Counted from the stretch's first letter, positions 7,766-29,064 are shown. The stretch: DNA of 32,000 nucleotides from Bdellovibrionales bacterium (GCA_965247685.1 OZ252021.1:990001-1022000); one strand, 5' to 3'. Notes: generated from the sequence alone by a model not told the origin. Made by a program: numbers and translations.

Positions 7766-9058
7766 ATGATTGCAAGGTATACGAGAGAGAATATGGGGAA
7801 TGTTTGGTCGGAGCAGAATCGTTTTGAGCAGATGTTACTTGTTGAGAAGGTAGTTGCTAAGATTCAAGGGCAAAGGAAAATTATTCCACTTCAAGCTTCT
7901 CGTGCTATTCAAAAAAAAGGGAAGTTTTCTTTACTGAGTATTCACCGATTAGAACTTAAGACCAAACATGATGTGTCGGCGTTTGTAAAAAATGTTTCCT
8001 CTTATGTGGGCAACCCATGGGGAGCTTATGTTCATTATGGACTGACATCTTCGGATGTTTTAGATACAGCTTTAAGTTTACAGATTAAGCAATCTAAAAA
8101 AATTATTTCCCAAGAAATTTTATACCTTAAGAGGGTGCTTAAAAAACTTATTCATCAGCATCGAGCAACATTATGTGTGGGGCGTACTCATGGAATTCAT
8201 GCTGAACCCACAACATTTGGTTTTAAGTTACTTAATTTTTTATCTGAACTTTCTCGAGCGGAAAAGACATTCATTCAATCTGTTCAAGAAAGTGCTGTGG
8301 GTGTGGTGAGTGGTCCAGTAGGGAATTATTCTGTTTTATCGGAAAGTTTGGAAAAATCTGTTTGTCGTCATCTTGGCTTGGGAGTGGAGTCTATTTCAAC
8401 GCAAGTGGTGGCTCGAGATCGTCATGCTCGAGTGATCTTTAGCTTATCACTCATTTTATCCGCTTTAGAAAGATGGTCTGTGGAGCTGAGGCATCTACAA
8501 AGAACAGAAGTTTCAGAAGTTTGTGAAGGTTTTTCTAAAGGTCAGCAAGGTTCAAGCTCTATGCCTCATAAAAAGAATCCTATTTCTGCTGAGAATATTA
8601 CGGGTTTATCTCGATTGCTCAGATCTTATCTACAATCTTCATTAGAAAATATCATTTTATGGCACGAAAGAGATATAAGCCATTCATCTGTGGAAAGAGT
8701 GATTTTTCCTGATGCTTTTATTTTGTGTGATTATGCTTTGTTTAGAATGAGAAATATTTTGGAAAATCTTGTTATTCAAAAAGATAATATGAAGAAAAAC
8801 TTATTATCTTCTGGTGGTGTAGTTTTTTCTTCTCAGATTTTACTTCTTTTGGTGAAGAATGGAGTGAGTCGTCAAGTAGCTTATTCTTGGGTGCAAAAGG
8901 CAGCTCATACAAAAAATGTGACTTTTGAGGAGGCCTTAAAAAAGACTCCAGCCCGTCAGTACATTGGAGAAAAGAAATGGCAAGATATTTTTTCTGGAAA
9001 AAGTTGGGCGAATAGGGTTTCTGATTTGGTGCTTAAAAAATTAAAGTCCCATTTTTAG
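7766..9058 (+). CDS. purB: Adenylosuccinate lyase
   Basis: Fumarate-lyase signature GSSSMPHKKNP. The N-terminus MIARYTRENMGNVWSEQNRF aligns with the MIERYSRPEM-type start of Bacillus-type PurB, so I prefer ATG 7766 (AAGGTG 9 nt upstream) over the tracked GTG at 7757. Confidence 0.92.
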   Translation: MIARYTRENMGNVWSEQNRFEQMLLVEKVVAKIQGQRKIIPLQASRAIQKKGKFSLLSIHRLELKTKHDVSAFVKNVSSYVGNPWGAYVHYGLTSSDVLDTALSLQIKQSKKIISQEILYLKRVLKKLIHQHRATLCVGRTHGIHAEPTTFGFKLLNFLSELSRAEKTFIQSVQESAVGVVSGPVGNYSVLSESLEKSVCRHLGLGVESISTQVVARDRHARVIFSLSLILSALERWSVELRHLQRTEVSEVCEGFSKGQQGSSSMPHKKNPISAENITGLSRLLRSYLQSSLENIILWHERDISHSSVERVIFPDAFILCDYALFRMRNILENLVIQKDNMKKNLLSSGGVVFSSQILLLLVKNGVSRQVAYSWVQKAAHTKNVTFEEALKKTPARQYIGEKKWQDIFSGKSWANRVSDLVLKKLKSHF

Positions 9059-9387
9059 TAGTAATAGCCTAAACAATGATTAAGATCAGCTTGGCATAAG
9101 TATCTTGCATGATACGGATCCCAAGTAAAGATTGTTTGATTCAAACAAAGGTTGTATTGATTTCTACAAGAAATATATTGAAACTGTCCGTATATTGAAA
9201 AGTGAAAATTAATTTGAATTCCAGGATTAGCAAGGATGAAGGGACATGTGTTGATGGGATGATGGCAAAGTGATCCATTATGGTAGTGTCCGTGATATTG
9301 TCTGTATCTTTGATTTGAGTGCGCCCAAGAAAAAGATGTCACACTGAGAACTATAAAAACAAATAAAATAAATAATTTATTCAACAT
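9055..9387 (-). CDS. Small secreted His/Tyr-rich protein with six cysteines (set A, copy 1)
   Basis: Signal peptide MLNKLFILFVFIVLSVTSFSWA. A GAGGTG Shine-Dalgarno element lies ~8 nt upstream. Promoter, leader and signal peptide are duplicated at 9701..10095. The mature part has six Cys and many His/Tyr residues. Confidence 0.65.
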   Translation of the reverse strand: MLNKLFILFVFIVLSVTSFSWAHSNQRYRQYHGHYHNGSLCHHPINTCPFILANPGIQINFHFSIYGQFQYISCRNQYNLCLNQTIFTWDPYHARYLCQADLNHCLGYYY

Positions 9388-9432
9388 ATTTTCACCTCTT
9401 TATGCTCTTCTTTTAACAGAGTTAGAGTACAA

Positions 9433-9461
9433 AATCTATACAAAGGTTTAATGTGTGTAAA
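9433..9461 (-). promoter_or_regulatory. Candidate sigma70-type promoter (TTTACA-17 nt-TAGATT) for 9055..9387
   Basis: Read on the minus strand: TTTACA (9456-9461), a 17-nt spacer, then TAGATT (9433-9438). The same element occurs upstream of 9701..9988, around 10033-10062, with an 18-nt spacer. Confidence 0.35.
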
Positions 9462-9700
9462 TTTTTCATTCTTTTTTTAAGATTTTTAATTTTCTGGCAT
9501 TGCTTTCAGGCTCATACCTTCGCAGTATAGAGTTGTGATTTTATCTCTTAAATGTTGTTTTTTGCATCGATAATTTATAGAGTCGTTTCTTTTATTATAG
9601 AATATTCTTATAATAATATCTTCAGGATGTTCTAATTGATTTGTTGTGCTGTATCTTCTTCAGTTAATGGATTTTGTTCGGTGAATCATACTGGAAGATC

Positions 9701-9988
9701 TTAAGGATAAAGAGATTCACATTCTTGTTTGAGAGTTTCAAAATTTTTAGATTGCTCATCAGGTGAGGAGTCCTCTACAAACTCCCGACGAGGATTGAGA
9801 CGAGGATTGGTAAGATGGATTTGATAAGCATCATTATCATCATTGAGTTCTTCACAGTCTACTTGTAGTTCTCTTAAGTATTCGTAATATGCATCCTGTT
9901 CTTCGTCATGCGACAATGGCACAGCCCAAGAAAAAAATGTTAAGCTGAGAGCTATAAAAGCAAACGAAATAAATAATTTATTCAACAT
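9701..9988 (-). CDS. Small secreted acidic protein with two cysteines (set A, copy 2)
   Basis: Signal peptide MLNKLFISFAFIALSLTFFSWA is nearly identical to that of 9055..9387, and the 5' region is conserved. The mature part is unrelated and acidic. It carries DCEELNDDNDAY and FETLKQECESL motifs that resemble family B. Confidence 0.65.
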   Translation of the reverse strand: MLNKLFISFAFIALSLTFFSWAVPLSHDEEQDAYYEYLRELQVDCEELNDDNDAYQIHLTNPRLNPRREFVEDSSPDEQSKNFETLKQECESLYP

Positions 9989-10126: not shown

Positions 10127-10792
10127 TTAGGATGATTTTGTTTTTTTAGAAGCCCTGCATTCTTCTTTAAGTGATTTATAGCTTTTTTTACTTGTCTGTG
10201 TTTTTGCCTTTGATTTACTTGTCTGTTTCTTCGAAACAGAAGATAGTTTATGTTGAGTACTTGTGACGAACCTAACGTTATCGTCATCATCTGTCCCATC
10301 AGAAGTAGCAGCAACGAGAGACTCTATTTCACAAGTTATGTTACCCTCCTTATTTACTCCTATAACTTTCATACTAAGCTCTTTTATACCAGAGGTGAAG
10401 TCTTTATCATTAGAAGTATGATTTTGAATCGTTTGTGCAAATAGTGTAGCTGTTCCATTGAAGCGATTAAATTCAGAACAAGTGATATTAGGTTTTTTCT
10501 TCGAGAGCTCTTCATCAGACAGGACTTCTTTGAGCTGAACTAATATTGTTTCATTAGAAGAGGCAATATTAACATCATAGTCTTGATCCTGAAACCAAAA
10601 AAAACTCCCCAAGAGATCAACTTCTGCTTTATAAGGTCCATCCAGACAGTGTGACTCAGCAACAACCACAGAATCTACAGAGGATCTTGTAGGAAGTTTT
10701 TCTGGTTGAGCATTCGGATCTTTTTCTTTAGGTCCACAGTGTGTAAGAGAAAGAAAACAGAAAAAAATTGAGATTAATATAAGAATTTTCAT
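10127..10792 (-). CDS. Family B secreted protein / putative lipoprotein, copy 1 (Lys-rich tail)
   Basis: Leader MKILILISIFFCFLSLTHCG. Family motifs present: C-x-DGPYKAE, YDVNIASS..ILVQLKE, C.EF, YKSLKEEC. GGAGG lies 8 nt before the ATG. Confidence 0.75.
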   Translation of the reverse strand: MKILILISIFFCFLSLTHCGPKEKDPNAQPEKLPTRSSVDSVVVAESHCLDGPYKAEVDLLGSFFWFQDQDYDVNIASSNETILVQLKEVLSDEELSKKKPNITCSEFNRFNGTATLFAQTIQNHTSNDKDFTSGIKELSMKVIGVNKEGNITCEIESLVAATSDGTDDDDNVRFVTSTQHKLSSVSKKQTSKSKAKTQTSKKSYKSLKEECRASKKTKSS

Positions 10793-10911
10793 AAATATAC
10801 CTCCAAACCTTGTGAGAAGTTTATCTTCATCGTTCGGGAAGGGTATAAGTATGAGTATTGAATGTCAATTTTTATTTGTAAAGAAAAATTAGTTTTAGAC
10901 TTTTGCAATAT

Positions 10912-10946
10912 AAAATAAAAAAAATGGAGGCCTTTCGAGCTTCCTT
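10912..10946 (-). terminator. Rho-independent terminator after family B copy 2
   Basis: Plus strand reads aaaaaaaat-GGAGGC-ctttcga-GCTTCC-ttttt (stem 10926-10931 / 10939-10944). On the minus strand the hairpin is followed by a T-run. It lies 78 nt after the stop at 11023. Confidence 0.6.
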
Positions 10947-11022
10947 TTTATTACGAGAACTAGTTTTTAAGTGACTATTCTGCGACTTACTTCTTCAATA
11001 TAACATAGGTGAATGGTAACTA

Positions 11023-11604
11023 CTAGAAGCGGTAAGCTATTGGCAGAGCATTACACTCTTGGCTCAGATCGCTGAAATTTTTAGCTCTTGCGTTTCTTCT
11101 ATAAATACGCATCTCGACATAGTCAGCCTCGAAGGCAGCCTGTAACTTCCTTGCAATACAAGATCTAGATCTAGAGCCATCTGCATTTGCACGATATACA
11201 TGTGCAAAAGAGATAGAAGTCACAATATTAATAAAACCCCTATGATTGAAATTTCCTGCTCTAATCAAAAGACTTTCACTAGATACTTGTTCACTAGATT
11301 GCCTTTCTATCGGAGGACTATTCTCTGACTCAGGTACAGCAGCACGTGCACGTGGCCTTCTAGGGTCAGAGAACTGAGTACAGAGGACATTTTCTCCTTC
11401 TCTTTCTTTAATCTGAACTAAAATCTCACTTGAAGAAGAAGCAATATTGACATCATAGGTTTGGCCAAAAGGACTGAAATTATTAAAGATAAAATCAGCA
11501 CTTCCTTGATATGCACCGTCAAGCGCATTGCAACCTACTATTCTCGATGAATCGCTATATCCAAGAAGACAGAAAAAAATTGAGATTAATATAAGAATTT
11601 TCAT
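11023..11604 (-). CDS. Family B secreted protein, copy 2
   Basis: The start is set at the internal Met (MKILILISIFFCLLGYS) by alignment with paralogs and GGAGG 8 nt upstream; the tracked extension to 11679 runs into the promoter. Motifs: CNALDGAY, YDVNIASSSSEILVQIKE, C.QF, CIA, FSDLSQECNAL. Confidence 0.8.
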   Translation of the reverse strand: MKILILISIFFCLLGYSDSSRIVGCNALDGAYQGSADFIFNNFSPFGQTYDVNIASSSSEILVQIKEREGENVLCTQFSDPRRPRARAAVPESENSPPIERQSSEQVSSESLLIRAGNFNHRGFINIVTSISFAHVYRANADGSRSRSCIARKLQAAFEADYVEMRIYRRNARAKNFSDLSQECNALPIAYRF

Positions 11605-11650
11605 AAATATACCTCCAAACCCTGAGAAGATAATCTTCATCTCTTGGGTA

Positions 11651-11679
11651 AGGATAAAAGTATGAGTATTGAGTGTCAA
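11651..11679 (-). promoter_or_regulatory. Candidate sigma70-type promoter TTGACA-17-TATCCT for family B copy 2
   Basis: Minus strand: TTGACA (11674-11679), a 17-nt spacer, then TATCCT (11651-11656). The same architecture is repeated upstream of copies 1, 3 and 4; copies 1 and 3 have TACCCT as the -10. Confidence 0.4.
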
Positions 11680-11727
11680 TTCATAATCTGTAAAGAAAAA
11701 TTAGTTTTAGATCATTGTAATATAAAA

Positions 11728-11759
11728 TAATAAAAAGGGGAGGTCTTTCGAGCTTCCTT
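11728..11759 (-). terminator. Rho-independent terminator after family B copy 3
   Basis: A GGAGGT/AGCTTCC-type hairpin (about 11739-11757) is flanked by an A-run on the plus strand, which is a T-run after the hairpin on the minus strand. Confidence 0.55.
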
Positions 11760-11808
11760 TTTTATTGTAAGAACTAGTTTTTAAGTGATTATTTTGCGGC
11801 TTACTTTT

Positions 11809-12372
11809 TCAATCATTATGAACGCGGTAAGTTGCTGTAAGAGCGTTGCACTCCTGGCTCAGATCACTGAAGCTTTTAGTTCTTGGTCCGGTTCTACGAA
11901 GCTTCCACCACCATCTCGAACCATGAGATATACCGTCGAGGTAAAATAAACCCCTTGCAATACAAAATCTAAAGCCATCTTCATTTCTTACAAAATATTC
12001 AAGTTTGATAGAATCCAGTGTGTAGGGAAATAGCTTATCATTGTAATCTCCTGATTTACTCAAAATACTACTACTAAGTATCTCCATTTCTGAACGTCTA
12101 GGATCAAAGAACTGAGTACAGGAGATATTTCTATTTCTTTCGCTTCTTTCGTCTCCTTCGTCCATTCTTTCTTTAATCTGAACTAAAATCTCACTTGAAG
12201 AAGAAGCAATATTGACATCATAGGTTTGGTCAAAAAGACCAAAAGGATTCCACCTAGAGGCAAAATCAGCCGTCCCTTCGTATGCACCGTCAAACCTATT
12301 GCACAATATTTTCGGTACATCGCCATATCCAGGAAAACAGAAAAAAATTGAGATTAATATAAGAATTTTCAT
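11809..12372 (-). CDS. Family B secreted protein, copy 3
   Basis: Leader MKILILISIFFCFPGYG. Motifs: CNRFDGAY, YDVNIASSSSEILVQIKE, C.QF, CIA, FSDLSQECNAL. The 5' region is nearly identical to that of copy 1. Confidence 0.8.
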   Translation of the reverse strand: MKILILISIFFCFPGYGDVPKILCNRFDGAYEGTADFASRWNPFGLFDQTYDVNIASSSSEILVQIKERMDEGDERSERNRNISCTQFFDPRRSEMEILSSSILSKSGDYNDKLFPYTLDSIKLEYFVRNEDGFRFCIARGLFYLDGISHGSRWWWKLRRTGPRTKSFSDLSQECNALTATYRVHND

Positions 12373-12494
12373 AAATATACCTCCAAACCTTGTGAGAAGT
12401 TTATCTTCATCGTTCGGGAAGGATATAAGTATGAGTATTGAATGTCAATTTTTATTTGTAAAGAAAAATTAGTTTTAGACTTTTGCAATATAAA

Positions 12495-12529
12495 ATAAAA
12501 AAAAAGGGGAGGCCTTTCGAGTTTCCCTT
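12495..12529 (-). terminator. Rho-independent terminator after family B copy 4
   Basis: Hairpin GGGAGGC-ctttcga-GTTTCCC (about 12507-12527), with A9 on the plus strand upstream, which is a T-run after the hairpin on the minus strand. Confidence 0.55.
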
Positions 12530-12577
12530 TTTATTGTAAGAACTAGTTTTTAAGTGACTACTTTGCGGCTTACTTCT

Positions 12578-13102
12578 TCAATTATATGAATGGAAAGTTA
12601 CAGTAAGAGCATTGCACTCCTGGCTCAGATCACTGAAGCTTTTAGTTCTTGATTCAGTTTTACGAAGCTCCCACCATTCCGGATCCTCATACTCATTGTT
12701 GAGGTAAAATAAACCCCTTGCAATACAAATTCTCAAGCCATCTTCATCTCTGAAAAAATATTGAAATCTGATAGAATCCAGTCTATAGGGAAATAGTTTA
12801 TCATTGTAAAATCCTGATTTATTCAAAATACTATTACTAAGTATACTCATGTTTGAATGTATAGGATCAAAGAACTGAGTACAGGAGATATTTCTTCCGT
12901 CTCTTTCTTTAATCTGCACTAAAATGCTATCTGAAGAAGAAGCAATATTGACATCATAGGTTTGGTCAAAAAGACTCCAACTAGAGACAAAATCAGCCTT
13001 TCCTTTATATGCACCGTCAAGCTCATTGCAACCTACTATTCTCGATATATCGCTATATCCAGAAAAACAGAAAAAAATTAAAATTAATATAAGAATTTTC
13101 AT
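12578..13102 (-). CDS. Family B secreted protein, copy 4
   Basis: The start is set at the internal Met (MKILILILIFFCFSGYS; CAT at 13100-13102) by paralog alignment and the GGAGG spacing. Motifs as in copies 2 and 3. Confidence 0.8.
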   Translation of the reverse strand: MKILILILIFFCFSGYSDISRIVGCNELDGAYKGKADFVSSWSLFDQTYDVNIASSSDSILVQIKERDGRNISCTQFFDPIHSNMSILSNSILNKSGFYNDKLFPYRLDSIRFQYFFRDEDGLRICIARGLFYLNNEYEDPEWWELRKTESRTKSFSDLSQECNALTVTFHSYN

Positions 13103-13151
13103 AAATATACCTCTAAATCCTGTGAGAAGATAATCTTCATCTCTTGGGTTA

Positions 13152-13180
13152 AGGATAAAAGTATGAGTATTGAGTGTCAA
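13152..13180 (-). promoter_or_regulatory. Candidate sigma70-type promoter TTGACA-17-TATCCT for family B copy 4
   Basis: Minus strand: TTGACA (13175-13180), a 17-nt spacer, then TATCCT (13152-13157). Confidence 0.4.
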
Positions 13181-13227
13181 TTTTTATCTGTAAAGGAAAA
13201 TTAGTTTTAGATCTTTGTAATATAAAA

Positions 13228-13258
13228 TAAAAAAAAAGGAAGTCTTTCGAGCTTCCCT
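13228..13258 (-). terminator. Rho-independent terminator after family B copy 5
   Basis: Hairpin GGAAGT-ctttcga-GCTTCC (about 13238-13256), flanked by an A-run and a T-run. Confidence 0.55.
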
Positions 13259-13296
13259 TTTTTTTATGAGAATTAGTTTTTAAGTAACTATTCTGT

Positions 13297-13908
13297 CTAG
13301 CTACTTTTTTCCTGTACCTTCTTCTTCTGAACTACTTCTTGAAGAGTATTACACTCCCGTTTAAGAACACTAAAGCTTTTAGCCTTTTCCTTGGTGGTTT
13401 TTCTAGTAAGCTTAACACTTTGACTAGTTTCACCTTCTTTTTTCACGATTAACCTATCTGCAATACAAGATTTAGAGCCATCTTTTTTCTTTGCAAGATT
13501 TGCAACTTCTTTGAAAGAGATAGAAGACACACCATCAGCAAAGTCCTTATGATTGTCTTTTCCTGCTCTAATCATAATACTTTCACTAGATATACTCGCT
13601 TCTGTCGGACTTGTTCTTTCAACGTCAGAAAATTGAGCACAGAGGACATTTTCGCCTTCTATTTCTTTAATCTGAACCAAAACATCATTTGAAGAAGAAG
13701 CAATATTAACATCATAGTCTGAGTCTGGAAACCAAAGATCAAAATCCCAGACAATATCAACATCTGCTTCATATGGACCATTAAGATCGTTGCAGCCTAT
13801 TGTTTCCAATGCTCCACTGCTTTTTCCGCTTAAATCGCTGTCTTCGCCACAGTGAACAAGAAATAATGTCACAAACGCCACAGTAATAATTCTAACTAAG
13901 TTTTTCAT
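13297..13908 (-). CDS. Family B putative lipoprotein, copy 5 (second leader type)
   Basis: Leader MKNLVRIITVAFVTLFLVHCGEDSD. Motifs: CNDLNGPYEA, YDVNIASSSNDVLVQIKE, C.QF, CIA, FSVLKRECNTL. Confidence 0.8.
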   Translation of the reverse strand: MKNLVRIITVAFVTLFLVHCGEDSDLSGKSSGALETIGCNDLNGPYEADVDIVWDFDLWFPDSDYDVNIASSSNDVLVQIKEIEGENVLCAQFSDVERTSPTEASISSESIMIRAGKDNHKDFADGVSSISFKEVANLAKKKDGSKSCIADRLIVKKEGETSQSVKLTRKTTKEKAKSFSVLKRECNTLQEVVQKKKVQEKSS

Positions 13909-13941
13909 ATTTCCTCCAAATGATTTTTAGTTACTGATGTT

Positions 13942-13971
13942 AAAAAAAAGGGAGACCTGTCGAGCTTCCTT
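13942..13971 (-). terminator. Weaker hairpin terminator after family B copy 6
   Basis: GGAGAC-ctgtcga-GCTTCC (about 13951-13969) has one mismatch and one G-U pair. It has the same A-run and T-run flanks as the other copies. Confidence 0.4.
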
Positions 13972-14012
13972 TTTTGTTATGAGAATTAGTTTTTAAGTAA
14001 CTATTCTACTGT

Positions 14013-14633
14013 CTAGTTACTACTTTTTTTTTCTGTACCTTCTTCTTTCTTAACTACTACTTGAAGAGTATCACACTCTTGTTTAAGGACACTAAAGCTT
14101 TTAACATTTCCTTTGGGTTCTCTAAGAAGCTCAGCAGTTTCTTCCTTAATAGTCCCAACTTTTATCACCTTTGTCACGATTAACTTATCTGCGCGACAAG
14201 ATTTATTAGAGAAATCTTCAAGATTTGTAGCAATCTCTTTGAAAGAGATAGAAGATATACCATCAGCAAAGTCCTCATCATTGTCTTTTCCTATTTTATT
14301 CACAATATTTTTACTAGACATGCTCGCTTCTGTCGGACTTGATCTTTTAATGTCAGAAAATTGAGCACAGAGGACATCGCCTTCTTCGCCTTTAATCTGA
14401 ACTAAAACATCACTTAAAGAAGAAGCAATATTAACTTCATAGTTGCTATCATAAGGAATACCATTCCAGAAAATATCAATATCTACTGTTTTATATACAC
14501 CATCAAGATCGTTGCAGCCTATTGCTTCCACTGCTCCAATGCCGCTTGCCTCTACAACATCGCTGTCTTCACCACAGTGAACAAGAAATAATGTCACAAA
14601 CCCCACAGCAACAATTTTAACTAAGTTTTTCAT
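14013..14633 (-). CDS. Family B putative lipoprotein, copy 6 (second leader type)
   Basis: Leader MKNLVKIVAVGFVTLFLVHCGEDSD. Motifs: CNDLDGVY, YEVNIASSLSDVLVQIK, C.QF, C.A, FSVLKQECDTL. Confidence 0.8.
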   Translation of the reverse strand: MKNLVKIVAVGFVTLFLVHCGEDSDVVEASGIGAVEAIGCNDLDGVYKTVDIDIFWNGIPYDSNYEVNIASSLSDVLVQIKGEEGDVLCAQFSDIKRSSPTEASMSSKNIVNKIGKDNDEDFADGISSISFKEIATNLEDFSNKSCRADKLIVTKVIKVGTIKEETAELLREPKGNVKSFSVLKQECDTLQVVVKKEEGTEKKSSN

Positions 14634-14919
14634 ATTTCCTCCAAATGATTCTCTAGTTACTAATGTTAAAAGAATAGTAGGGGTAATTTACGCTCAACTT
14701 TTAAAATAAAGCAAACATTTTTTAAATTTTTTTAGATTACCTTTTCTTCCAATGCCTTAAAAACAGGATTTAATTTTAATTAAGTTCTTTTAAATACCTG
14801 TAATTACTAAATATTATAATATATACATGCACGAAGATCTAGTATTTTTTTGATATGTACAAATATAAATATTTGATAAGAAGTATCAGGTTGATCAACT
14901 GAAATGTGAAAAATTTATA

Positions 14920-15777
14920 CTATATACAAGGGTGTGTTTTTCGCCATTCGGAGAAGAAGGTCTCTGGATTAGGTGGATTTTCTTGTGTCTCAAGTTCACT
15001 GCTTTTGAATCGGATTGCCTCACTAGATTGTCGCAGTTCATTAGTCAAAAATACAGTCATACTTTCTAATGTTCCTGTATCTGCCGCCGTAATGACGCGA
15101 ATTTCTTTCATAATGGTATATGCATCTTCAATAGGGTCACCTTGCTCATCCATTTGTACTAAGGATTGGGCTTTGTAAGTCGTGTGCATACTACTGCTAC
15201 TTTGGTCGTTATAGCCTCTATCTATCATTTGTTGAGAGTCAACAATAGTAAAATCGCTCAATAGTATACAAAATCCTCCAGACACTTGAGGATCATTGGA
15301 GCGCATATGGAACATTAAAATATCGGATGTAGCGCTGTATGCGACAACAATCTTTGTAGCAAGATTAGTTTTCCAGAAATCTAGCCAGCCCCAGTAGACA
15401 TCCACATTTTTTTGGTACACTCCTGTAATCTGCTCAAGCTGTTTTGCAAATGTTGCAAATGATGGAGCAACAGACATATTGTCTTGAGGCTCTTTTGGTG
15501 GAGGTGTTTGTTGAGATGGTTGACGGATTTCTGTTGGCTGTTCAGTCTCTTTCTGCTGTTTTTGGAACGGAGCTTCATTAGAAGGAGCTTCATTAGAAGG
15601 AACTACATTAGAAGGAACTACATTAGAAGGAACTACATTATCATTAGAAGGAGCTTCAGATTCTGCAGGTTTTCCCGTCTTTATCTTTTGTTTTTGAGAC
15701 GGAGTCTCAAGTCCTGGATCCGATCCTGAGCAGGAGATATAAAACAAAACCAACACAAAAGAAATTACAAATTTCAT
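14920..15777 (-). CDS. Family C lipoprotein, most divergent copy (P/S/N pentapeptide-repeat linker)
   Basis: Leader MKFVISFVLVLFYISCSGS (hydrophobic core followed by Cys). VVPSN/EAPSN repeats. The conserved C-domain runs from PSFATFAKQLEQITGVY to RFKSSE...FFSEWRKTHPCI. Confidence 0.8.
   Translation of the reverse strand: MKFVISFVLVLFYISCSGSDPGLETPSQKQKIKTGKPAESEAPSNDNVVPSNVVPSNVVPSNEAPSNEAPFQKQQKETEQPTEIRQPSQQTPPPKEPQDNMSVAPSFATFAKQLEQITGVYQKNVDVYWGWLDFWKTNLATKIVVAYSATSDILMFHMRSNDPQVSGGFCILLSDFTIVDSQQMIDRGYNDQSSSSMHTTYKAQSLVQMDEQGDPIEDAYTIMKEIRVITAADTGTLESMTVFLTNELRQSSEAIRFKSSELETQENPPNPETFFSEWRKTHPCI
15571..15655 (-). repeat. 15-nt in-frame tandem repeat (about 5-6 units) encoding EAPSN/VVPSN
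   Basis: Plus strand shows cattagaaggagctt / cattagaaggaacta repeated head to tail. The translation is NDNVVPSNVVPSNVVPSNEAPSNEAP. Confidence 0.85.
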
Positions 15778-16011
15778 AGAATTTCTCCAAAATAAAAAGT
15801 TCTCGAAGTGTATTTTTAGGTCAGATTTTAACTTTTGTCAATAAAAAAGGGCGGTCTTCAGATCAGAATGGATGTTCAAAACACTAAAATCACTTAATAA
15901 AATAGCAAAACCGTTTCCATTTATATCATAATTTAACAGTTCTAAATATTCAATAAGAAATTCAGATTGATCGTCTACGGAGATTCGATCACCTCCGAGG
16001 TTCCTCTTCTG

Positions 16012-16947
16012 TTATATAAATCTACAAGGGGATTTATTCAGCTGTTCGGAGAAAAAGGCCTCTGGATCAGACGATATTTCCTCACTACTACGTTCACTGC
16101 TTTCGAATCGGAATGGGCTCAACACCTGGGTGAATCCACCAATCAGGCGGGAAGGAATCAGAAGACATATATACAAAATCTTCCAGGCTTGCTAGCATCC
16201 ATGGAGCGCATCCAGACCATTAAAGTATCAAAGTTAGGGCTGTATGCGAATAACAATCCTTACAGAAAGATCAGCTTTCCAAAAGTCATACGGGAACCAT
16301 TCCCAGTAGACATTCATTTTTTTGTGGTACACTCCTGTAATCTGCTCAAGCTGTTTTGCAAATGATGGAGAAGCAGACGTTGGAAGCTCTTGTTGTTCAG
16401 AGTTTTGTTGAAGTTCATTTTAACAAAAACCTGAATAAAATCGACAAAGTACAGATACTTCGTGTTCAAAATAGTGAGCTCTTTTTTCAAATTCTGCAAA
16501 TTCTTGTTCAAATTCTGCAAATTCTTGTAGAAATTGTTCAAATTCTTGTTCAAATTCTTGTTCACGTGTTTCAGATAGACTGTTTTCAGGTTTTTGTTTA
16601 AATTCTGCATATTCTTGTTTTAATTGTGCATAGTCTTGTAGAAATTCTGCATATTCTTGTTTTAATTGTGCATAGTCTTGTTCAAATTGTTCATATTGTT
16701 CAAAGTCATTTTGAGGTTGTTTAGATTCTTGTAGAAGTGTTCCAGGTAGAAGTGCTTCAGTTTCTTGTTGAGGTTGTTCAGAGTTTTGTTGAAATTGTTT
16801 CATTTGTTGTTCGGTTTTTTGTTGAATTTGTTCAGTTTCTTTTCGAAGTTGTTCAATTTGTTGTTGAGACGGAGTCTCAAGTCCTGGATCCGATCCTGAG
16901 CAGGAGATATAAAACAAAACCAACACAAAAGAAATTACAAATTTCAT
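16012..16947 (-). pseudogene. Family C lipoprotein pseudogene (nonsense codon, 1-nt insertion and ~257-nt internal deletion)
   Basis: The 5' part (ORF 16420..16947) has an intact leader identical to that of the 14920 copy. An in-frame TAA lies at 16420-16422. Downstream, the same frame continues with NELQQNSEQQELPTSASPSFAKQLEQITGVYHKK.., then there is an extra A near 16250 relative to paralogs. The domain core is missing between about 16175 and its flank. The canonical end ..SPCRFI-stop is at 16012. Confidence 0.75.
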
Positions 16948-17179
16948 AGAATTTCTCCAAAATAAAAAGTTCTCGAAGTGTATTTTAGGTCAGATTTTAA
17001 CTTTTGTCAATAAAAAAGGGCGGTCTTCAGATCAGAATGGATGTTCAAAACACTAAAATCACCTAATAAAATAGCAAAATCGTTTCCATTTATTTCATAT
17101 TTAACAGTTCTAAATATTCAATGAGAAATTCAGATTGATCGTCTACGGAGATTCGATCACCTCCGAGGTTCCTCTTCTG

Positions 17180-18385
17180 TTATATAAATCTACAAGGGGA
17201 TTTATTCAGCTGTTCGGAGAAGAAGGCCTCTGGATCAGATGGTATTTCCTCACTACGTTCACTGCTTTTGAATCGGAATGGCTCAACACCTGAGTGAATC
17301 CAATCAGGCGGGGCGCTGAAGTAAGCAGACATATATAAAGTCATGCTTTCTAATTCTCCTGTATCTGTGACGAAAAGAGAAATGAATCTCGTCGTATTTT
17401 CTACATCTCCCACCTGGTCCAGACCCTCTCTTAATCCTTGAATGTAGCCATGTTCATTATTCATCTGAAGTTCCTTCACCCACTCTTTTTTTAAGGATCG
17501 GGCTTCGTAAATCGTGTGGGTACTCTCGTTGCGACCTTCATCGTCTATATAGTCTGGCTCAAAGTCAGCAATATTAAAATCGCTCAATAGTACACAAAAT
17601 CTTCCAGGCTCGCTAGCATCCATGGAGCGTATCCAGAACATTAAAGTATCGGACATAGGGCTGTATGCGAGAACAGTCTTTGTAGAAAGATCAGCTATCC
17701 AAGAGTCATACGGGAACCATGACCAGTAGACATCCACTTTTTTGTGGTACACTCCTGTAATCTGCTCAAGCTGTTTTGCAAATGATGGAGGAGCAGGAGA
17801 AGCAGACGTTGGAAGCTTTTGTTGTTTGGTTTGTTGTTGAGGCGGAGTCTCAGTTTCTTTTTGAATTTCTTCAATGTCTTCTTTAGTTTCTTGTTTAATT
17901 TCTTCAATTTGTTGTTCAGATTTTTGTTTAATTTCTTTAATTTGTTGTCCAGATTTTTGTTTAATTTCTTTAATTTGTTGTGGAGGCGGAGTCTCAGTTT
18001 CTTTTTGAATTTCTTCAATGTCTTTTTTAGTTTCTTTTTGAATTTCTTCAATGTCTTCTTTAGTTTCTTGTTTAATTTCTTCAATTTGTTGTTCAGATTT
18101 TTGTTTAATTTCTTTAATTTGTTGTCCAGATTTTTGTTTAATTTCTTTAATTTGTTGTGGAGGCGGAGTCTCAGTTTCTTTTTGAATTTCTTCAATGTCT
18201 TTTTTAGTTTCTTTTTGAATTTCTTCAATGTCTTCTGTAGTTTCTTGTTTAATTTGTTGAATTTGTTGTTCAGATTTTTGTTGAATTTGTTTAATCTGTT
18301 GTTGAGGTGGAGTCTCAAGTCCTGCATTCGATCCTGAGCAGGAGACATAAAAGAAAACCAACACAAAAGAAAATACAAATTTCAT
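17180..18385 (-). CDS. Family C lipoprotein, longest copy (401 aa)
   Basis: Leader MKFVFSFVLVFFYVSCSGS, a long QQIKEIKQKS/EDIEEIQKET repeat stalk, and a conserved C-domain ending FFSEQLNKSPCRFI. GGAGAA lies ~6 nt before the ATG. Confidence 0.85.
   Translation of the reverse strand: MKFVFSFVLVFFYVSCSGSNAGLETPPQQQIKQIQQKSEQQIQQIKQETTEDIEEIQKETKKDIEEIQKETETPPPQQIKEIKQKSGQQIKEIKQKSEQQIEEIKQETKEDIEEIQKETKKDIEEIQKETETPPPQQIKEIKQKSGQQIKEIKQKSEQQIEEIKQETKEDIEEIQKETETPPQQQTKQQKLPTSASPAPPSFAKQLEQITGVYHKKVDVYWSWFPYDSWIADLSTKTVLAYSPMSDTLMFWIRSMDASEPGRFCVLLSDFNIADFEPDYIDDEGRNESTHTIYEARSLKKEWVKELQMNNEHGYIQGLREGLDQVGDVENTTRFISLFVTDTGELESMTLYMSAYFSAPPDWIHSGVEPFRFKSSERSEEIPSDPEAFFSEQLNKSPCRFI
17805..18313 (-). 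repeat. Nested in-frame tandem repeats (177-nt units built from 33-nt and shorter sub-repeats)
   Basis: tggaggcggagtctcagtttc occurs at 17981 and again at 18158, a period of 177 nt (59 codons). A shorter third unit starts near 17836. Confidence 0.9.
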
Positions 18386-18582
18386 AGAATTTCTCCAAAA
18401 AAAAAGGTTCTCAAAGTATATTTTCGGGTCAGATTTTAACTTTTGTCAATAAAAAAGAGAGTCCGTCAGATCAAAATGGGTATTCAAAACACTAAAATCA
18501 CTTAATAAAATAGCAAAACCGTTTCCATTTATATCATAATTTAACAGTTCTAAATATTCAATAAGAAATTCAGATTGATCAC

Positions 18583-19680
18583 CTACTGAGATTTGATCGT
18601 CTGAGATACGTTGTTGATGATCGTCGTCCACTTCTTAACTGTGATCTTCACCAGAGGTTTATCTATAAATCTACAAGGGGATTTATTCAGCTGTTCGGAG
18701 AAGAAGGCCTCTGGATCAGATGGTATTTCCTCACTACGTTCACTGCTTTTGAATCGGAATGGCTCAACACCTGGGTGAATCCACCAATCAGGCGGGAAGG
18801 AATCAGAAGACATATATACAGTCATGCTTTCTAATTTTCCTGTATCTGTGACGAAAAGAGAAATGAATCTCGTCGTACTCTCTACATCTCCCACCCTGTA
18901 CAGATTCTCTTTTAATCCTTGCCTGTAGTCATCGGTACTATTATGCTGATGCTCCTCCTTCCACTCGTTTTTTAAGGATTTGGCTTCGTAAACCGTGAGG
19001 GTACTCCCGCTGCGACCTTCATAGTCTATATAGTCTGGCTCAAAGCCAGCAATATTAAAATCGCTCAATAGTACACAAAATCTTCCAGGCTCGCTAGCAT
19101 CCATGGAGCGCATCCAGACCATTAAAGTATCAAAGTTAGGGCTGTATGCGAGAACAATCTTTGTAGAAAGATCAGCTATCCAAGAGTCATACGGGTACCA
19201 AAGCCAGGTGACATCTTTTTTTTTGTGGTACACTCCTGTAATCTGCTCAAGCTGTTTCGCAAATGATGGAGGAGCAGACGTTGGAAGCTTTTGTTGTTTG
19301 ATTTGTTGTGGAGGCGGAGTCTCAGCTTCTTTTTGAATTTCTTCAATGTCTTCTGTAGTTTCTTGTTTAATTTGTTGAATTTGTTGTTCAGATTTTTGTT
19401 TAATTTCTTTAATTTGTTGTTCAGATTTTTGTTTAATTTCTTTAATTTGTTGTGGAGGCGGAGTCTCAGTTTCTTTTTGAATTTCTTCAATGTCTTTTTT
19501 AGTTTCTTTTTGAATTTCTTCAATGTCTTCTGTAGTTTCTTGTTTAATTTGTTGAATTTGTTGTTCAGATTTTTGTTGAATTTGTTTAATCTGTTGTTGA
19601 GGTGGAGTCTCAAGTCCTGCATTCGATCCTGAGCAGGAGACATAAAAGAAAACCAACACAAAAGAAAATACAAATTTCAT
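18583..19680 (-). CDS. Family C lipoprotein with C-terminal read-through extension
   Basis: The first 86 aa are identical to the 17180..18385 copy in the ORF track. The canonical ..SPCRFI end is followed by DKPLVKITVKKWTTIINNVSQTIKSQ instead of a stop. Confidence 0.8.
   Translation of the reverse strand: MKFVFSFVLVFFYVSCSGSNAGLETPPQQQIKQIQQKSEQQIQQIKQETTEDIEEIQKETKKDIEEIQKETETPPPQQIKEIKQKSEQQIKEIKQKSEQQIQQIKQETTEDIEEIQKEAETPPPQQIKQQKLPTSAPPSFAKQLEQITGVYHKKKDVTWLWYPYDSWIADLSTKIVLAYSPNFDTLMVWMRSMDASEPGRFCVLLSDFNIAGFEPDYIDYEGRSGSTLTVYEAKSLKNEWKEEHQHNSTDDYRQGLKENLYRVGDVESTTRFISLFVTDTGKLESMTVYMSSDSFPPDWWIHPGVEPFRFKSSERSEEIPSDPEAFFSEQLNKSPCRFIDKPLVKITVKKWTTIINNVSQTIKSQ
19285..19608 (-). repeat. 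Q/E/K/I-rich in-frame tandem repeats (stalk region)
   Basis: Uses the same sub-repeat vocabulary as 17805..18313 (QQIKEIKQKSEQQI, EDIEEIQKE, ETPPPQQ) but with fewer units. Confidence 0.85.
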
Positions 19681-19890
19681 AGAATTTCTCCAAAAAAAAG
19701 GTTCTCAAAGTATATTTTCGGGTCAGATTTTAACTTTTGTCAATAAAAAAGAGAGTCCGTCAGATCAAAATGGGTATTCAAAACACTAAAATCACTTAAT
19801 AAAATAGCAAAACCGTTTCCATTTATATCATAATTTAACAGTTCTAAATATTCAATGAGAAATTCAAATTGATCACCTACTGAGATTTGA

Positions 19891-20895
19891 TCACCAGAGA
19901 GATTTATCTATAAATCTACAAGGGGATTTATTCAGCTGTTCGGAGAAGAAGGCCTCTGGATCAGATGGTATTTCCTCACTACTACGTTCACTGCTTTTGA
20001 ATCGGATTGGCTCTACACCTGAATGAAACCAAGCAGGCTTGAAGATCGTCCTGAACATCATATAAGGAAACATATATACAGTCATGCTTTCTAATTCTCC
20101 TGTATCTGTGACGAAAAGAGAAATGAATCTCGTCGTACTATCTGCATCTCCCACCTGGTTCAGATCCTCTTTTAATCCTTGCCTGTAGTCATCGATACTA
20201 TTATGCTGAAGCTCCTCCTTCCACTCGCTTTTTAAGTATTTGGCTTCGTAAACCGTGAGGGTACTCCCGTTGTGACCTTCATCGTCTGTATAGTCTGGCT
20301 CAAAGCCAGCAATACTAAAATTGCTCAATAGTGTACAAAATCTTCCAGGATCGTCAGCATCCATGGAGCGTATCCAGAACATTAAAGTATCAGAGTTAGG
20401 GCTGTATGCGAGAACAATCTTTGTAGAAAGATCAGCTTTCCAAAAGTCATAAGGGTACCATAACCAGTAGACATCCACTTTTTTGTGGTACACTCCTGTA
20501 ATCTGCTCAAGCTGTTTTGCAAATGATGGAGGAGCAGGAGAAGCAGACGTTGGAAGCTCTTGCGGTTTGGTTTGTTGTTGAGACGGAGTCTTAGTTTCTT
20601 TTTGAACTTGTTCAATTTGTCGTATAGTTTCTTTTTGAATTTTTTCAATTTCTACTTTATTTTCTTGTTTAATTTGTTCAATTTCTTCTTTAGTTTCTTG
20701 TTCGGTTTGTTGTCCAGATTCTTGTTGAAGTTGTTCAATTTGTTGTTCGGTTTTTTGTTGAATTTCTTTAATTTGTTGTCCAGATTTTTGTTGAATTTCT
20801 TTAATTTGTTGTTGAGGTGGAGTCTCAAGTCCTGCATCCAATCCTGAGCAGGAGACATTAAACAAAACCAACACAAAAGAAAATAAAAATTTCAT
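19891..20895 (-). CDS. Family C lipoprotein
   Basis: Leader MKFLFSFVLVLFNVSCSG, a less regular Q/E/K/I stalk, a conserved C-domain, and the end ..SPCRFIDKSLW. Confidence 0.85.
   Translation of the reverse strand: MKFLFSFVLVLFNVSCSGLDAGLETPPQQQIKEIQQKSGQQIKEIQQKTEQQIEQLQQESGQQTEQETKEEIEQIKQENKVEIEKIQKETIRQIEQVQKETKTPSQQQTKPQELPTSASPAPPSFAKQLEQITGVYHKKVDVYWLWYPYDFWKADLSTKIVLAYSPNSDTLMFWIRSMDADDPGRFCTLLSNFSIAGFEPDYTDDEGHNGSTLTVYEAKYLKSEWKEELQHNSIDDYRQGLKEDLNQVGDADSTTRFISLFVTDTGELESMTVYMFPYMMFRTIFKPAWFHSGVEPIRFKSSERSSEEIPSDPEAFFSEQLNKSPCRFIDKSLW
20545..20823 (-). repeat. Imperfect Q/E/K/I-rich low-complexity repeats (stalk region)
   Basis: The translation QQIKEIQQKSGQQIKEIQQKTEQQIEQLQQESGQQTEQETKEEIEQIKQENKVEIEKIQKETIRQIEQVQKET is degenerate relative to the other copies. 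Confidence 0.7.
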
Positions 20896-21127
20896 AGAAT
20901 TTCTCCAAAATAAAAAGTTCTCGAAATGTATTTTTAGGTCAGATTTTAACTTTTGTCAATATAAAGAGAGTCCGTCAGATCAAAATGGGTATTCAAAACA
21001 CTAAAAGCATTTAATAAAATAACAAAACCGTTTCCATTTATTTCATACTTAACAGTTCTAAATATTCAATAAGAAATTCAGATTGATTGTCTGCTGAGAT
21101 TCGATCACCTCCGAGGTTCCTCTTCTG

Positions 21128-22165
21128 TTATATAAATCTACAAGGGGATTTATTCAGCTGTTCGGAGAAGAAGACCTCTGAATCAGATGGTATTTCCTCA
21201 CTACGTTCACTGCTTTTGAATCGGATTGGCTCAACACCTGGGTGAACCCAATCCTGCCGGAAGGTAGAGGAAGAAGACATATATAAAGTCATGCTTTCTA
21301 ATTTTCCTGTATCTGTGACGAAAAGAGAAATGAATCTCGTTATACTCTCTACATCTCCCACCCTGTGTAGTTTATCTTTTACTCCTTGATTGTAGTCATC
21401 GAGATTATTATTCTGAAGCTCCTTCACCCACTCTTTTTTTAAGGATCGGGCTTCGTAAATCGTGTGGGTACTCTCGTTGCGACCTTCATCGTCTATATAG
21501 TCTGGATAGTCTAGCTCAAAGCCAGCAATAATATTAAAATCGCTCAATAGTACACAAAATCTTCCAGGCTTGCCAACATCCATGGAGCGCATCCAGACCA
21601 TTAAAGTATCGGACATAGAGCTGTATGCGATAACAATCCTTACAGGAAGATCAGCTTTCCAAAAGTCATACGGGTACCAATTCCAGTAGACATCCACTGT
21701 TTTGTGGTACACTCCTGTAATCTGCTCAAGCTGTTTCGCAAATGATGGAGGAGCAGACGTTGGAAGCTTTTGTTGTTTGATTTGTTGTGGAGGCGGAGTC
21801 TCAGCTTCTTTTTGAATTTCTTCAATGTCTTCTGTAGTTTCTTGTTTAATTTGTTGAATTTGTTGTTCAGATTTTTGTTTAATTTCTTTAATTTGTTGTC
21901 CAGATTTTTGTTGAATTTGTTTGATTTGTTGTGGAGGCGGAGTCTCAGTTTCTTTTTGAATTTCTTCAATGTCTTCTGTAGTTTCTTGTTTAATTTGTTG
22001 AATTTGTTGTTCGGTTTTTTGTTTAATTTGTTTAATTTGTTGTCCAGATTTTTGTTTAATTTCTTTAATTTGTTTTTGTTGTTGAGATGGAGTCTCAAGT
22101 TCTGCATCCAATCCTGAGCAGGAGACATAAAACAAAATCAACACAAAAGAAAATAAAAATTTCAT
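21128..22165 (-). CDS. Family C lipoprotein (first copy in transcription order)
   Basis: Leader MKFLFSFVLILFYVSCSG, a repeat stalk, and a conserved C-domain ending ..SPCRFI. Confidence 0.85.
   Translation of the reverse strand: MKFLFSFVLILFYVSCSGLDAELETPSQQQKQIKEIKQKSGQQIKQIKQKTEQQIQQIKQETTEDIEEIQKETETPPPQQIKQIQQKSGQQIKEIKQKSEQQIQQIKQETTEDIEEIQKEAETPPPQQIKQQKLPTSAPPSFAKQLEQITGVYHKTVDVYWNWYPYDFWKADLPVRIVIAYSSMSDTLMVWMRSMDVGKPGRFCVLLSDFNIIAGFELDYPDYIDDEGRNESTHTIYEARSLKKEWVKELQNNNLDDYNQGVKDKLHRVGDVESITRFISLFVTDTGKLESMTLYMSSSSTFRQDWVHPGVEPIRFKSSERSEEIPSDSEVFFSEQLNKSPCRFI
21750..22093 (-). repeat. Q/E/K/I-rich in-frame tandem repeats (stalk region)
   Basis: QQIK[EQ]IKQK[ST][EG]QQI..IKQETTEDIEEIQKE[TA]ETPPPQQ appears twice in the translation. 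Confidence 0.85.
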
Positions 22166-26498: not shown

Positions 26499-26574
26499 GG
26501 CGGTCGTAGTTCAATGGTAGAGCGCCAGATTGTGGTTCTGGTTGTTGCGGGTTCGAATCCCGTCGATCGCCCCA
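26499..26574 (+). tRNA. tRNA-His (GTG anticodon)
   Basis: Hand-folded cloverleaf. The extra G at -1 (26499) pairs with discriminator C. Acceptor stem is GCGGTCG/CGATCGC. Anticodon stem is CCAGA/TCTGG with loop TTGTGGT. T-loop is TTCGAAT. The CCA end is encoded. Confidence 0.9.
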
Positions 26575-28850: not shown

Positions 28851-28937
28851 TTTTTGTGTCCCTGTTTTTAATGCAGATATATTTTTTTCAACTTTTACCA
28901 CTCTAATCACCGTGTGTATAGAGTGTAATAAGTACAT

Positions 28938-28978: not shown

Positions 28979-29064
28979 TGGTGCCTCGGGGGAGACTTGA
29001 ACTCCCACAACCTTACGGTCACATGATTTTGAGTCATGCGCGTCTACCATTCCGCCACCAAGGC
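28979..29064 (-). tRNA. tRNA-Leu (CAA anticodon), long variable arm
   Basis: The reverse complement folds as: acceptor GCCTTGG/CCGAGGC, D-arm GCG-GAATGGTAGA-CGC, anticodon stem CATGA/TCATG with loop CTCAAAA, a ~15-nt variable arm, T-arm GGGAG-TTCAAGT-CTCCC, and an encoded ACCA end. Confidence 0.9.

Follow-up and report, generated by a model that had tools for sequence, protein, structure and literature searches.

What are the six small genes that stand in tandem on the minus strand of a Bdellovibrionales bacterium chromosome, and how did they come to differ so strongly from one another? The question arises from a stretch of 32,000 nucleotides of that genome (GCA_965247685.1 OZ252021.1:990001-1022000), hereafter called the window, in which six minus-strand paralogs encoding proteins of 174-221 amino acids lie within positions 10127-14640. 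With a probability of about 0.6, we read the locus as a tandem array of a clade-restricted, exported and ancestrally lipoprotein family that would provide a variable repertoire. The six genes are as follows.

10127-10792, minus strand: copy 1, 221 amino acids; 'type II' subfamily; leader MKILILISIFFCF with the lipobox-like site LSLTHCG
11023-11604, minus strand: copy 2, 193 amino acids from the ATG; type I; without a lipobox; leader MKILILISIFFCLLGYS, then D; an apparent mosaic
11809-12372, minus strand: copy 3, 187 amino acids; type I; without a lipobox
12578-13102, minus strand: copy 4, 174 amino acids from the ATG; type I; without a lipobox
13297-13908, minus strand: copy 5, 203 amino acids; type I; lipobox-like leader LFLVHCGEDSD; target of the confident structure model
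14013-14633, minus strand: copy 6, 206 amino acids; type I; leader LFLVHCGEDSD; first family gene in transcription order

The proteins can be aligned over their full length at 30-71% pairwise identity. Copies 3 and 4 are the closest pair (71%), followed by copies 5 and 6 (60%) and by copy 2 with either copy 3 or copy 4 (55%), and copy 1 is only 30-36% identical to all the others. Columns that are invariant in the six-protein alignment include G..Y, Y.VNIASS, LVQ.K, C..F, the third cysteine and K.[FY]..L..EC. A first-pass annotation, generated by a model from the window sequence, had described six tandem paralogs with common anchors and two types of leader. The open reading frames (ORFs), the end-to-end alignment and the invariance of the listed anchors confirm this description, as does the comparison of leaders, in which that of copy 1 is a hybrid. 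Longer, TTG-started versions of copy 2 (11023-11679, 218 amino acids) and copy 4 (12578-13180, 200 amino acids) were also listed among the ORFs, and the public protein P0002 is the 200-amino-acid form of copy 4, beginning inside the -35 hexamer at 13180. Both TTG starts were rejected, as each TTG is part of a TTGACA -35 box (11679, 13180). Because of this coincidence, and because the ATGs at 11604 and 13102 are preceded by GGAGG/AGAGG, these ATGs are the credible starts.

No match to the six proteins was found in Pfam, NCBIfam, PADLOC (nothing meaningful) or PHROGs. Pfam gave no match to 34 aligned members either, and a sequence-profile search of the PDB returned only lipoprotein signal-peptide noise. 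The first-pass annotation had not recognised the family, and this verdict is upheld against Pfam, NCBIfam, PADLOC, PHROGs and PDB sequences alike; the hidden Markov model and structure-based searches that it suggested were run and gave no confident match to a characterised domain. Among 5.8 billion proteins searched with a word index, only the six of the source genome, from a contig of 1,280,446 bp, came up. HMMER, run exhaustively against 1.84 billion cluster representatives, gave 32 matches (28 of them foreign) at E-values from 1e-26 to 9e-4. The search of related genomes for family size, likewise suggested, was also carried out and yielded about 28 distant clusters, with arrays of five to seven copies on three related ENA contigs (L033, L031 and L028). 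Pattern scans of genome and metagenome contigs, made with alignment A1, found no relatives; the source genome lies outside the GTDB representatives, and the family-wide alignment, A2, was too divergent for pattern design. As judged from these searches, the array belongs to a family of small exported proteins (about 175-220 amino acids) that is confined to one clade and has yet to be catalogued.

All six copies have an N-terminal hydrophobic leader. Under the lipoprotein rule (a PROSITE PS51257-type lipobox), a positively charged n-region and a hydrophobic h-region are followed by [LVI]-[ASTVI]-[GAS]-C, placed no further than about 35 residues from the start. Copies 1, 5 and 6 begin with MK and 14-17 hydrophobic residues and continue with L-[TV]-H-C-G, so that positions -3, -2 and +1 fit the rule and the histidine at -1 does not. 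Copies 2-4 have no lipobox (IFFC only), and their leader, MKILILISIFFC[LF].GY[SG] followed by D, resembles a signal-peptidase-I substrate; their products are probably soluble and released into the periplasm or the medium rather than anchored to a membrane. Almost all relatives start with MK, a hydrophobic stretch and [LF]-[STVIN]-[HSY]-C-[GS...], with H, S or Y at position -1 and an invariant leader cysteine. Because an L-[ST]-H-C-G leader is found in most relatives, the lipoprotein-type leader is read as the ancestral state, which copies 1, 5 and 6 would have retained and copies 2-4 lost. Lipidation would be the natural, if unproven, reading of such leaders. Every 'HC' leader in about 130 kb of the source and related genomes belongs to the array family, and other lipoprotein-like leaders there use S or A. 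The proteins had initially been called secreted, which agrees with the hydrophobic leader of all copies and is too simple for a family with a lipoprotein-type ancestral leader that copies 1, 5 and 6 appear to keep and copies 2-4 to have lost.

Exactly five cysteines, one in the leader and four in the mature domain, are present in about 42 of 46 aligned sequences, and the four of the mature domain are kept in nearly all of the approximately 45 relatives. Copy 1 has six, located at position 12 of the leader, in the lipobox and at the four mature-domain positions, the first of which stands in a 'SHCLDG' context. Only two sequences, P0019 and P0023 from sister taxa, lack mature Cys1 and Cys3 together; P0033, from the genome of a relative, is without the C-terminal cysteine. 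The joint loss of Cys1 and Cys3 from P0019 and P0023 suggests a likely disulfide pairing of Cys1 with Cys3 and of Cys2 with Cys4, a proposal that may rest on a single evolutionary event. The kept cysteine pattern fits a disulfide-stabilised exported protein, and the retention of the four mature cysteines in nearly every relative thus supports, at the sequence level, the earlier supposition of disulfide stabilisation.

Structure prediction with AlphaFold was poor when only the six sequences were supplied (predicted local distance difference test score, pLDDT, 55.6), and that model was not used. With the 34-sequence alignment, copy 5 was predicted with a pLDDT of 83.2 and a predicted template modelling score (pTM) of 0.77. 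In this model a disordered linker precedes a predicted meander of nine β-strands (residues 44-48, 65-71, 75-82, 88-94, 105-107, 110-115, 126-135, 147-156 and 163-169), and a C-terminal helix (179-187) carries Cys4. The predicted order of nine antiparallel strands and then a C-terminal helix is one reason to consider that the proteins are lipocalin- or calycin-like carriers of lipids or small molecules (sterols, bile-salt-like compounds), with paralogs tuned to different ligands. The lipoprotein-type anchor and the predicted disulfides would suit such carriers, the locus adjoins a GDSL lipase and a MacB/FtsX-type ATP-binding cassette (ABC) transporter, and the weak top Foldseek matches are mostly calycin-type barrels, namely VtrC with bile salts, nitrophorin 4, fatty-acid-binding proteins (FABPs), bile-acid-binding proteins and nitrobindin. 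However, no structural match was significant (E ≥0.075, TM score ≤0.37), and no Lipocalin, Lipocalin_2, FABP or YceI signal was obtained from Pfam for the 34 members at E ≤1 or from the PDB sequence-profile search. The lipase and transporter, moreover, belong to a tesA-ybbA-ybbP trio, a widely conserved housekeeping cluster, and the L031 array is without the trio. The family is not demonstrably lipocalin, and we consider carriers of this kind distinctly unlikely.

The relationships among the copies were examined in a neighbour-joining tree. Type II, with an 'HC.DG' context for the first cysteine, comprises copy 1, P0014-16, P0020 (the last L031 gene) and four L033 genes; L033 genes g2, g4 and g7 group with copy 1. 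Type I splits into genome-specific clades, one of copies 2-6 of the window, one of g1, g3 and g5 of L033, and one of five genes in L031. In L033 the two types alternate, which indicates duplication of a two-gene unit, and a pair of genes, one of each type, probably made up the ancestral unit. On this tree the locus appears ancestral, with expansions that are lineage-specific or homogenised within each genome; copy 1 would be an old type II paralog and copies 2-6 a genome-specific type I expansion.

Individual copies also combine segments of different affinity. In sliding windows, the nucleotide identity of copy 2 is 0.83-0.98 to copies 3 and 4 over the first third and 0.72-0.88 to copy 5 over columns 84-156, with copies 3 and 4 again the closest at the end; copy 2 is best read as a mosaic with ends like copies 3/4 and a middle like copy 5. 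The 135 nucleotides upstream of copy 1 and its first 45 coding nucleotides are 99-100% identical to those of copy 3. Because promoter and leader agree to this extent, gene conversion is indicated, by which a type II gene, otherwise unrelated, would have acquired a segment of the copy 3 type.

The ratio of nonsynonymous to synonymous substitution rates (dN/dS, Nei-Gojobori) was computed over the mature region. All pairs among copies 2-6 give 0.93-1.30, at a dS of 0.2-0.6; between copy 1 and the rest, dS is saturated. The younger L033 paralogs give values of 0.49-1.21, and one pair has seven nonsynonymous and no synonymous changes, which is not significant. When mapped on the copy 5 model, mean pairwise identity is 0.56 in secondary-structure elements versus 0.39 in loops (Mann-Whitney p=0.003), and the hot spots of variation are loops 49-64, 136-146 and 157-162 and strand 163-169. 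The noncoding flanks are at least as conserved as the coding sequence. The first-pass annotation had attributed the strong divergence between anchors to diversifying pressure. The divergence itself is seen in the dN/dS values and in the more variable loops; much of it comes from duplication and conversion. The sequences compared show duplication, segmental conversion between genes and fast replacement around a cysteine scaffold that stays fixed; positive selection is not demonstrated.

A gene-wide dN/dS near 1 could also mean that redundant paralogs are drifting under relaxed constraint, the array being what repeated unequal crossing-over leaves behind at a locus prone to recombination; the many replacements would then reflect lost function in surplus copies rather than selection for diversity. 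Three copies that lost the lipobox, sense-strand terminators that have decayed (see below) and P0033, with its missing C-terminal cysteine, point in the same direction. Yet all six ORFs are still intact at a dS of about 0.2-0.7, the five cysteines and the YDVNIASS/LVQIK/EC anchors are kept over about 45 sequences, and secondary-structure elements are significantly more conserved than loops. Four genomes maintain arrays of five to seven copies at the corresponding place, and promoters and ribosome-binding sites are nearly identical. Drift of this kind is in our view unlikely, though it carries some weight.

How the copies are expressed was addressed from their upstream and downstream regions. 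The promoter-like sites are these.

about 10840-10868, minus strand: promoter-like TTGACA-17-TACCCT of copy 1, read from the sequence and lying in register with that of copy 3 at an offset of 1580 nucleotides
11651-11679, minus strand: promoter-like TTGACA-17-TATCCT of copy 2, from the promoter scan
12420-12448, minus strand: promoter-like TTGACA-17-TATCCT of copy 3, from the promoter scan
13152-13180, minus strand: promoter-like TTGACA-17-TATCCT of copy 4, from the promoter scan

The box of copy 1 fell below the threshold of the scan owing to its TACCCT. Besides the upstream region shared by copies 1 and 3 there is a second variant, in copies 2 and 4, which are 94% identical over 135 upstream nucleotides and 89% over the first 45 coding nucleotides; the two variants are 86-89% identical to each other. 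Copies 5 and 6 are 95% identical over 92 nucleotides around the start. The ribosome-binding site of copies 1-4 is GGAGG (AGAGG in copy 4) and ends 7 nucleotides before the ATG. No promoter-like site was found for copy 5, where only about 40 nucleotides separate the T-run of a hairpin from the ribosome-binding site; because this gap holds no such site, copy 5 is more likely co-transcribed with copy 6.

An element 38 nucleotides upstream of the ATG in copies 1-4 (at about 10830, 11642, 12410 and 13140, minus strand) reads ATGAAGAT[AT]A[AT]CTTCTCA.. and looks like a degenerate gene start. It forms a 13-codon upstream ORF. For copies 1, 3 and 4 the TGA of this ORF overlaps the true ATG (ATGA); that of copy 2 is in frame with the gene and provides the start of the public annotation P0005 (205 amino acids).

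Downstream of copies 2-6, and absent after copy 1, is a 93-nucleotide repeat family whose members are 68-89% identical to a reference copy (ungapped). The hairpins at these places are listed with their folding energies; no strand is assigned to them.

10926-10944: hairpin downstream of copy 2, with A-run and T-run flanks; sense -8.6 kcal/mol (z -0.6), antisense -10.4
11740-11758: hairpin downstream of copy 3; sense -8.1 kcal/mol (z -1.45), antisense -20.3 (z -4.9)
12509-12527: hairpin downstream of copy 4; sense -7.5 kcal/mol (z +0.2), antisense -13.8
13238-13256: hairpin downstream of copy 5; sense -17.7 kcal/mol (z -5.6), antisense -13.5; the only strong sense-strand case
13951-13969: hairpin between copies 6 and 5; sense -7.9 kcal/mol (z -2.2), antisense -11.4; weak, with no space for a promoter behind it

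The GGAGGC/GCTTCC hairpin, as written, is that of the plus strand, and in four of the five sense RNAs the G·U pairs of the plus strand become A·C mismatches. The antisense (plus-strand) fold is more stable than the sense fold in four of five cases, and a consensus terminator scan detects two of the five hairpins, both on the plus strand. The sense strand bears the longer T-run (8-9 T), and leaky termination is plausible. The gene purB converges on the array from the plus strand, the strand favoured by four of the five hairpins. Some copies in relatives have perfect TTGACA-17-TATAAT promoters and clean sense-strand terminators, and these support the idea of modular expression.

For copies 1-4, these results agree with the near-identical 5' regions in two variants, with TTGACA-17-TA[TC]CCT, that the first-pass annotation had reported, and also with its hairpin element after copies 2-6 and not after copy 1. 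The distance of GGAGG from the ATG, given there as 8 nucleotides, is corrected to 7, with AGAGG in copy 4. Independent transcription could apply at best to copies 1-4, which have their own promoter boxes, and is not supported for copy 5, which has no promoter-like site. The proposal that the hairpins are the terminators of their respective copies calls for correction, as four of the five are weak on the sense strand (-7.5 to -8.6 kcal/mol).

Taken together, the tandem array of exported, ancestrally lipoprotein genes would have arisen as follows. The ancestral protein would have begun with MK and a hydrophobic leader whose last residues were L-[ST]-[HSY]-C-G; a short linker would have led to a compact nine-strand antiparallel β domain and a C-terminal helix, with four cysteines bracing the β-rich domain in an oxidising compartment. 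Diversity would stem from three sources: tandem duplication; segmental gene conversion between copies, as suggested by the mosaic copy 2 and the overwritten promoter and leader of copy 1; and rapid replacement in the loops and the C-terminal part of the sheet, with the Cys/YDVNIASS/LVQIK scaffold held. In copies 2-4 the lipobox would have been replaced by a short leader with a signal-peptidase-I-like site (GY[SG], then D), and the products are probably released. Copies 4, 3, 2 and 1 would each have their own σ70-like promoter and Shine-Dalgarno sequence, and copy 5 would most likely be carried on the transcript of copy 6, past a leaky hairpin. As to function, we infer an envelope- or surface-exposed binding or shielding repertoire that would face a changing partner such as a host, prey or phage.

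Several points weigh against this reading. The histidine at lipobox position -1 breaks the canonical [GAS] rule and makes lipidation uncertain. A gene-wide dN/dS of about 1 fits a mixture of constrained and neutral sites equally well. Foldseek found nothing significant in the PDB (best E-value 0.075, TM score ≤0.37) and no match in BFVD, and the notion of a 'binding barrel' draws on the topology of the predicted model alone. The NusA encoded in the window is 75% identical to that of the 'Bdellovibrionales bacterium' metagenome-assembled genome (MAG) RHO3_bin_17, with other matches at about 40%, and the pattern scan of this nearest named genome found no family member. MAGs of Bdellovibrionota have been found in sponges, Rhopaloeides among them (Robbins et al. 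2021, PMC8163846); RHO3_bin_17 is not named in the main text of that paper. Nothing specific was found in the literature on the lineage or on a His(-1) lipobox.

A bolder version can be formulated, in which the family would found a new fold, a disulfide-stapled β-barrel, and would serve as the binding repertoire, diversified by gene conversion among expressed paralogs, of an uncultivated, probably host-associated, small-genome Bdellovibrionota-like lineage. The His(-1) 'HCG' lipobox would serve specifically as a signal for processing or sorting, and copies 2-4, having replaced it, would make released instead of anchored proteins. We regard this version as a long shot.

Two things had been overlooked in the first-pass annotation, namely that copy 1 belongs to a different, apparently older subfamily and that a larger syntenic island contains the array. 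The window is chromosomal, with the order glpX, cytochrome c peroxidase, purL/purQ/purS, purB (to 9058), an island of exported paralogs of about 20 kb, tRNA and rimP-nusA. Apart from the array, the following features were located.

9055-9988, minus strand: two small MLNKLFI-leader proteins, part of the island
14920-22165, minus strand: a second tandem lipoprotein family of six genes, leader MKF[VL][IF]SFVL..[YN][IV]SCSG, part of the island
14920-15777, minus strand: 285-amino-acid lipoprotein ('type III') that heads the locus, with orthologs before the arrays in L033, L031 and L028
22417-26295, minus strand: tesA-ybbA-ybbP-like trio of GDSL lipase, ABC ATPase and 838-amino-acid double-FtsX permease, arranged like E. 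coli ybbP-ybbA-tesA, part of the island
26650-28083 and 28173-28937, minus strand: pair of MIQHFYS-leader paralogs of 477 and 254 amino acids, part of the island
26500-26571 (plus strand) and 28982-29064 (minus strand): two tRNA genes (Rfam), flanking the MIQHFYS pair

The corresponding loci on the three related contigs are arranged as follows.

L033, 1.16 Mb: GDSL-ABC-FtsX, a 242-amino-acid lipoprotein, seven family genes, purB-purSQL
L031, 1.37 Mb: rimP-nusA, a 241-amino-acid lipoprotein, six family genes, a His/Cys-rich small protein (ortholog of window 9055-9387), purB
L028, 2.07 Mb: ABC-FtsX, five family genes and a 303-amino-acid lipoprotein, dprA

From this arrangement, the array appears to sit in a syntenic, fast-evolving island of exported proteins. 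One boundary is formed by rimP-nusA or the tesA-ybbA-ybbP-like genes and the opposite one by purB-purSQL, and this layout recurs in small-genome bacteria whose closest named genome is a Bdellovibrionales MAG.

The 'type III' lipoprotein at 14920-15777 has a leader and C-terminus in common with five more genes at 16420-22165. When a few hundred ORFs were searched locally, the A2 profile matched it at an E-value of 4e-5, and hhalign of A2 against alignment A3 gave an E-value of 1e-3 with a probability of 20%; a very distant relationship to the six-gene family is possible. Five of the six lipoproteins at 14920-22165 end in ..FFSE....PC..., and four have long Q/K/E-rich helical linkers made of 33-nucleotide (11-amino-acid) in-frame tandem repeats; the one at 14920-15777 has a 15-nucleotide repeat in 4.3 copies. 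The genes at 9055-9387 and 9701-9988 (minus strand) encode secreted paralogs with the leader MLNKLFI..SWA, and their 127-nucleotide upstream regions are 87% identical. The first of these proteins is rich in His, Cys and Tyr, and its ortholog in L031 (12845-13234) occupies the corresponding position. The second, of 95 amino acids, lies directly downstream of copy 1 and ends in the family motif KNFETLKQECESL (KNFETLKQEC); its C-terminus matches the family profile by hhalign with an E-value of 2.6e-4 over 18 columns. The MIQHFYS pair has the leader MIQHFYS.LLLILLFCPFAF and the C-terminus ELLFG.R..FK.L..SGW, and neither member has a Pfam match. The GDSL-ABC-FtsX trio also borders the array in L033, and an ABC and FtsX pair does so in L028 and L029. 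A gathering-threshold scan with Rfam found only the two tRNAs, both outside the array region.

These neighbourhoods also bear on whether the proteins are orphan periplasmic or lipoprotein immunity proteins against secreted antibacterial effectors, kept in tandem as they are beside type VI secretion system (T6SS) or polymorphic-toxin loci. The proteins are small, directed to the periplasm, cysteine-containing, tandem and rapidly diverging, as such proteins would be, and a GDSL lipase gene lies 11 kb away. That lipase, however, belongs to the conserved tesA-ybbAP arrangement, neither PADLOC nor Pfam gave a match, and no toxin, Rhs, T6SS, type VII secretion system or contact-dependent inhibition component was found at the locus in the window, L028, L031 or L033. 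An immunity role is highly improbable. Anti-phage defence and toxin-immunity were rejected as candidates, with no meaningful PADLOC match, neighbours that are housekeeping genes or other exported paralogs, and no effector in the four loci.

Three known systems invite comparison with the array. In the variable surface lipoprotein clusters of Mycoplasma (Vsp of M. bovis, Vlp of M. hyorhinis and Vsa of M. pulmonis), the mature parts consist of in-frame tandem repeats. The likeness to these clusters lies in tandem (here putative) lipoprotein genes, a small genome, a conserved 5' region and signal peptide, diverged mature parts, and chimeras formed by recombination. A conserved 5' expression region and leader of the Vsp/Vlp/Vsa kind was found here, at 86-100% identity among copies 1-4 and 95% over 92 nucleotides in copies 5 and 6. 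In contrast to Vsp, Vlp and Vsa, the mature part is predicted to be a globular, cysteine-stapled β domain, and there is no sequence similarity. Tandem Repeats Finder detected no in-frame tandem repeats within 10127-14640, and repeat-based size variation was rejected, no repeats being present inside the six genes. A phase-variation switch was likewise rejected, as inverted repeats bracketing the promoters and a recombinase in the window were not found; the promoter spacers contain no homopolymer tract.

Borrelia has paralogous lipoprotein arrays as well, including the PFam54/CspA cluster on lp54, Erp/OspE-F and Mlp; PFam54 proteins are helical, and Borrelia lipoproteins are usually without disulfides. 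The resemblance is in the lineage-specific tandem expansion of small (here putative) surface lipoproteins, gene conversion, elevated dN/dS and a copy number that differs at a syntenic locus. Unlike the Borrelia arrays, the present one is chromosomal rather than plasmid-borne, its proteins are predicted to be β-rich with two disulfides, and it has no sequence or Pfam match to them. With Blc and the calycins the family has in common a lipoprotein-type leader, a length of about 160-180 amino acids, a predicted antiparallel β meander with a C-terminal helix, stabilising disulfides (here likewise predicted) and weak top Foldseek matches to calycins. It differs from them in the absence of any significant structural or sequence match and of the G-x-W signature, and Blc is single-copy rather than a diversifying array.

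About 45 sequences of the protein family are known so far. It lies outside every curated library searched, and its confidently predicted fold is without a significant neighbour among solved or viral structures. In a small-genome lineage about which little is known, the array marks a chromosomal hot spot of very high variability. Fast-evolving exported families usually act at the interface with host, prey or phage, which makes these proteins first candidates for understanding the lifestyle of the lineage. The family-restricted His(-1), together with lipobox loss in three copies, poses a small testable question on lipoprotein processing and sorting. Current understanding is not overturned; the locus is a well-behaved case of a familiar evolutionary pattern and is useful for annotating the lineage. 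It resembles the Mycoplasma Vsp/Vlp and Borrelia arrays in its apparent behaviour and belongs to neither. What is known is the pattern of a variable exported or lipoprotein multigene family, and what is new is the uncatalogued domain underneath it.

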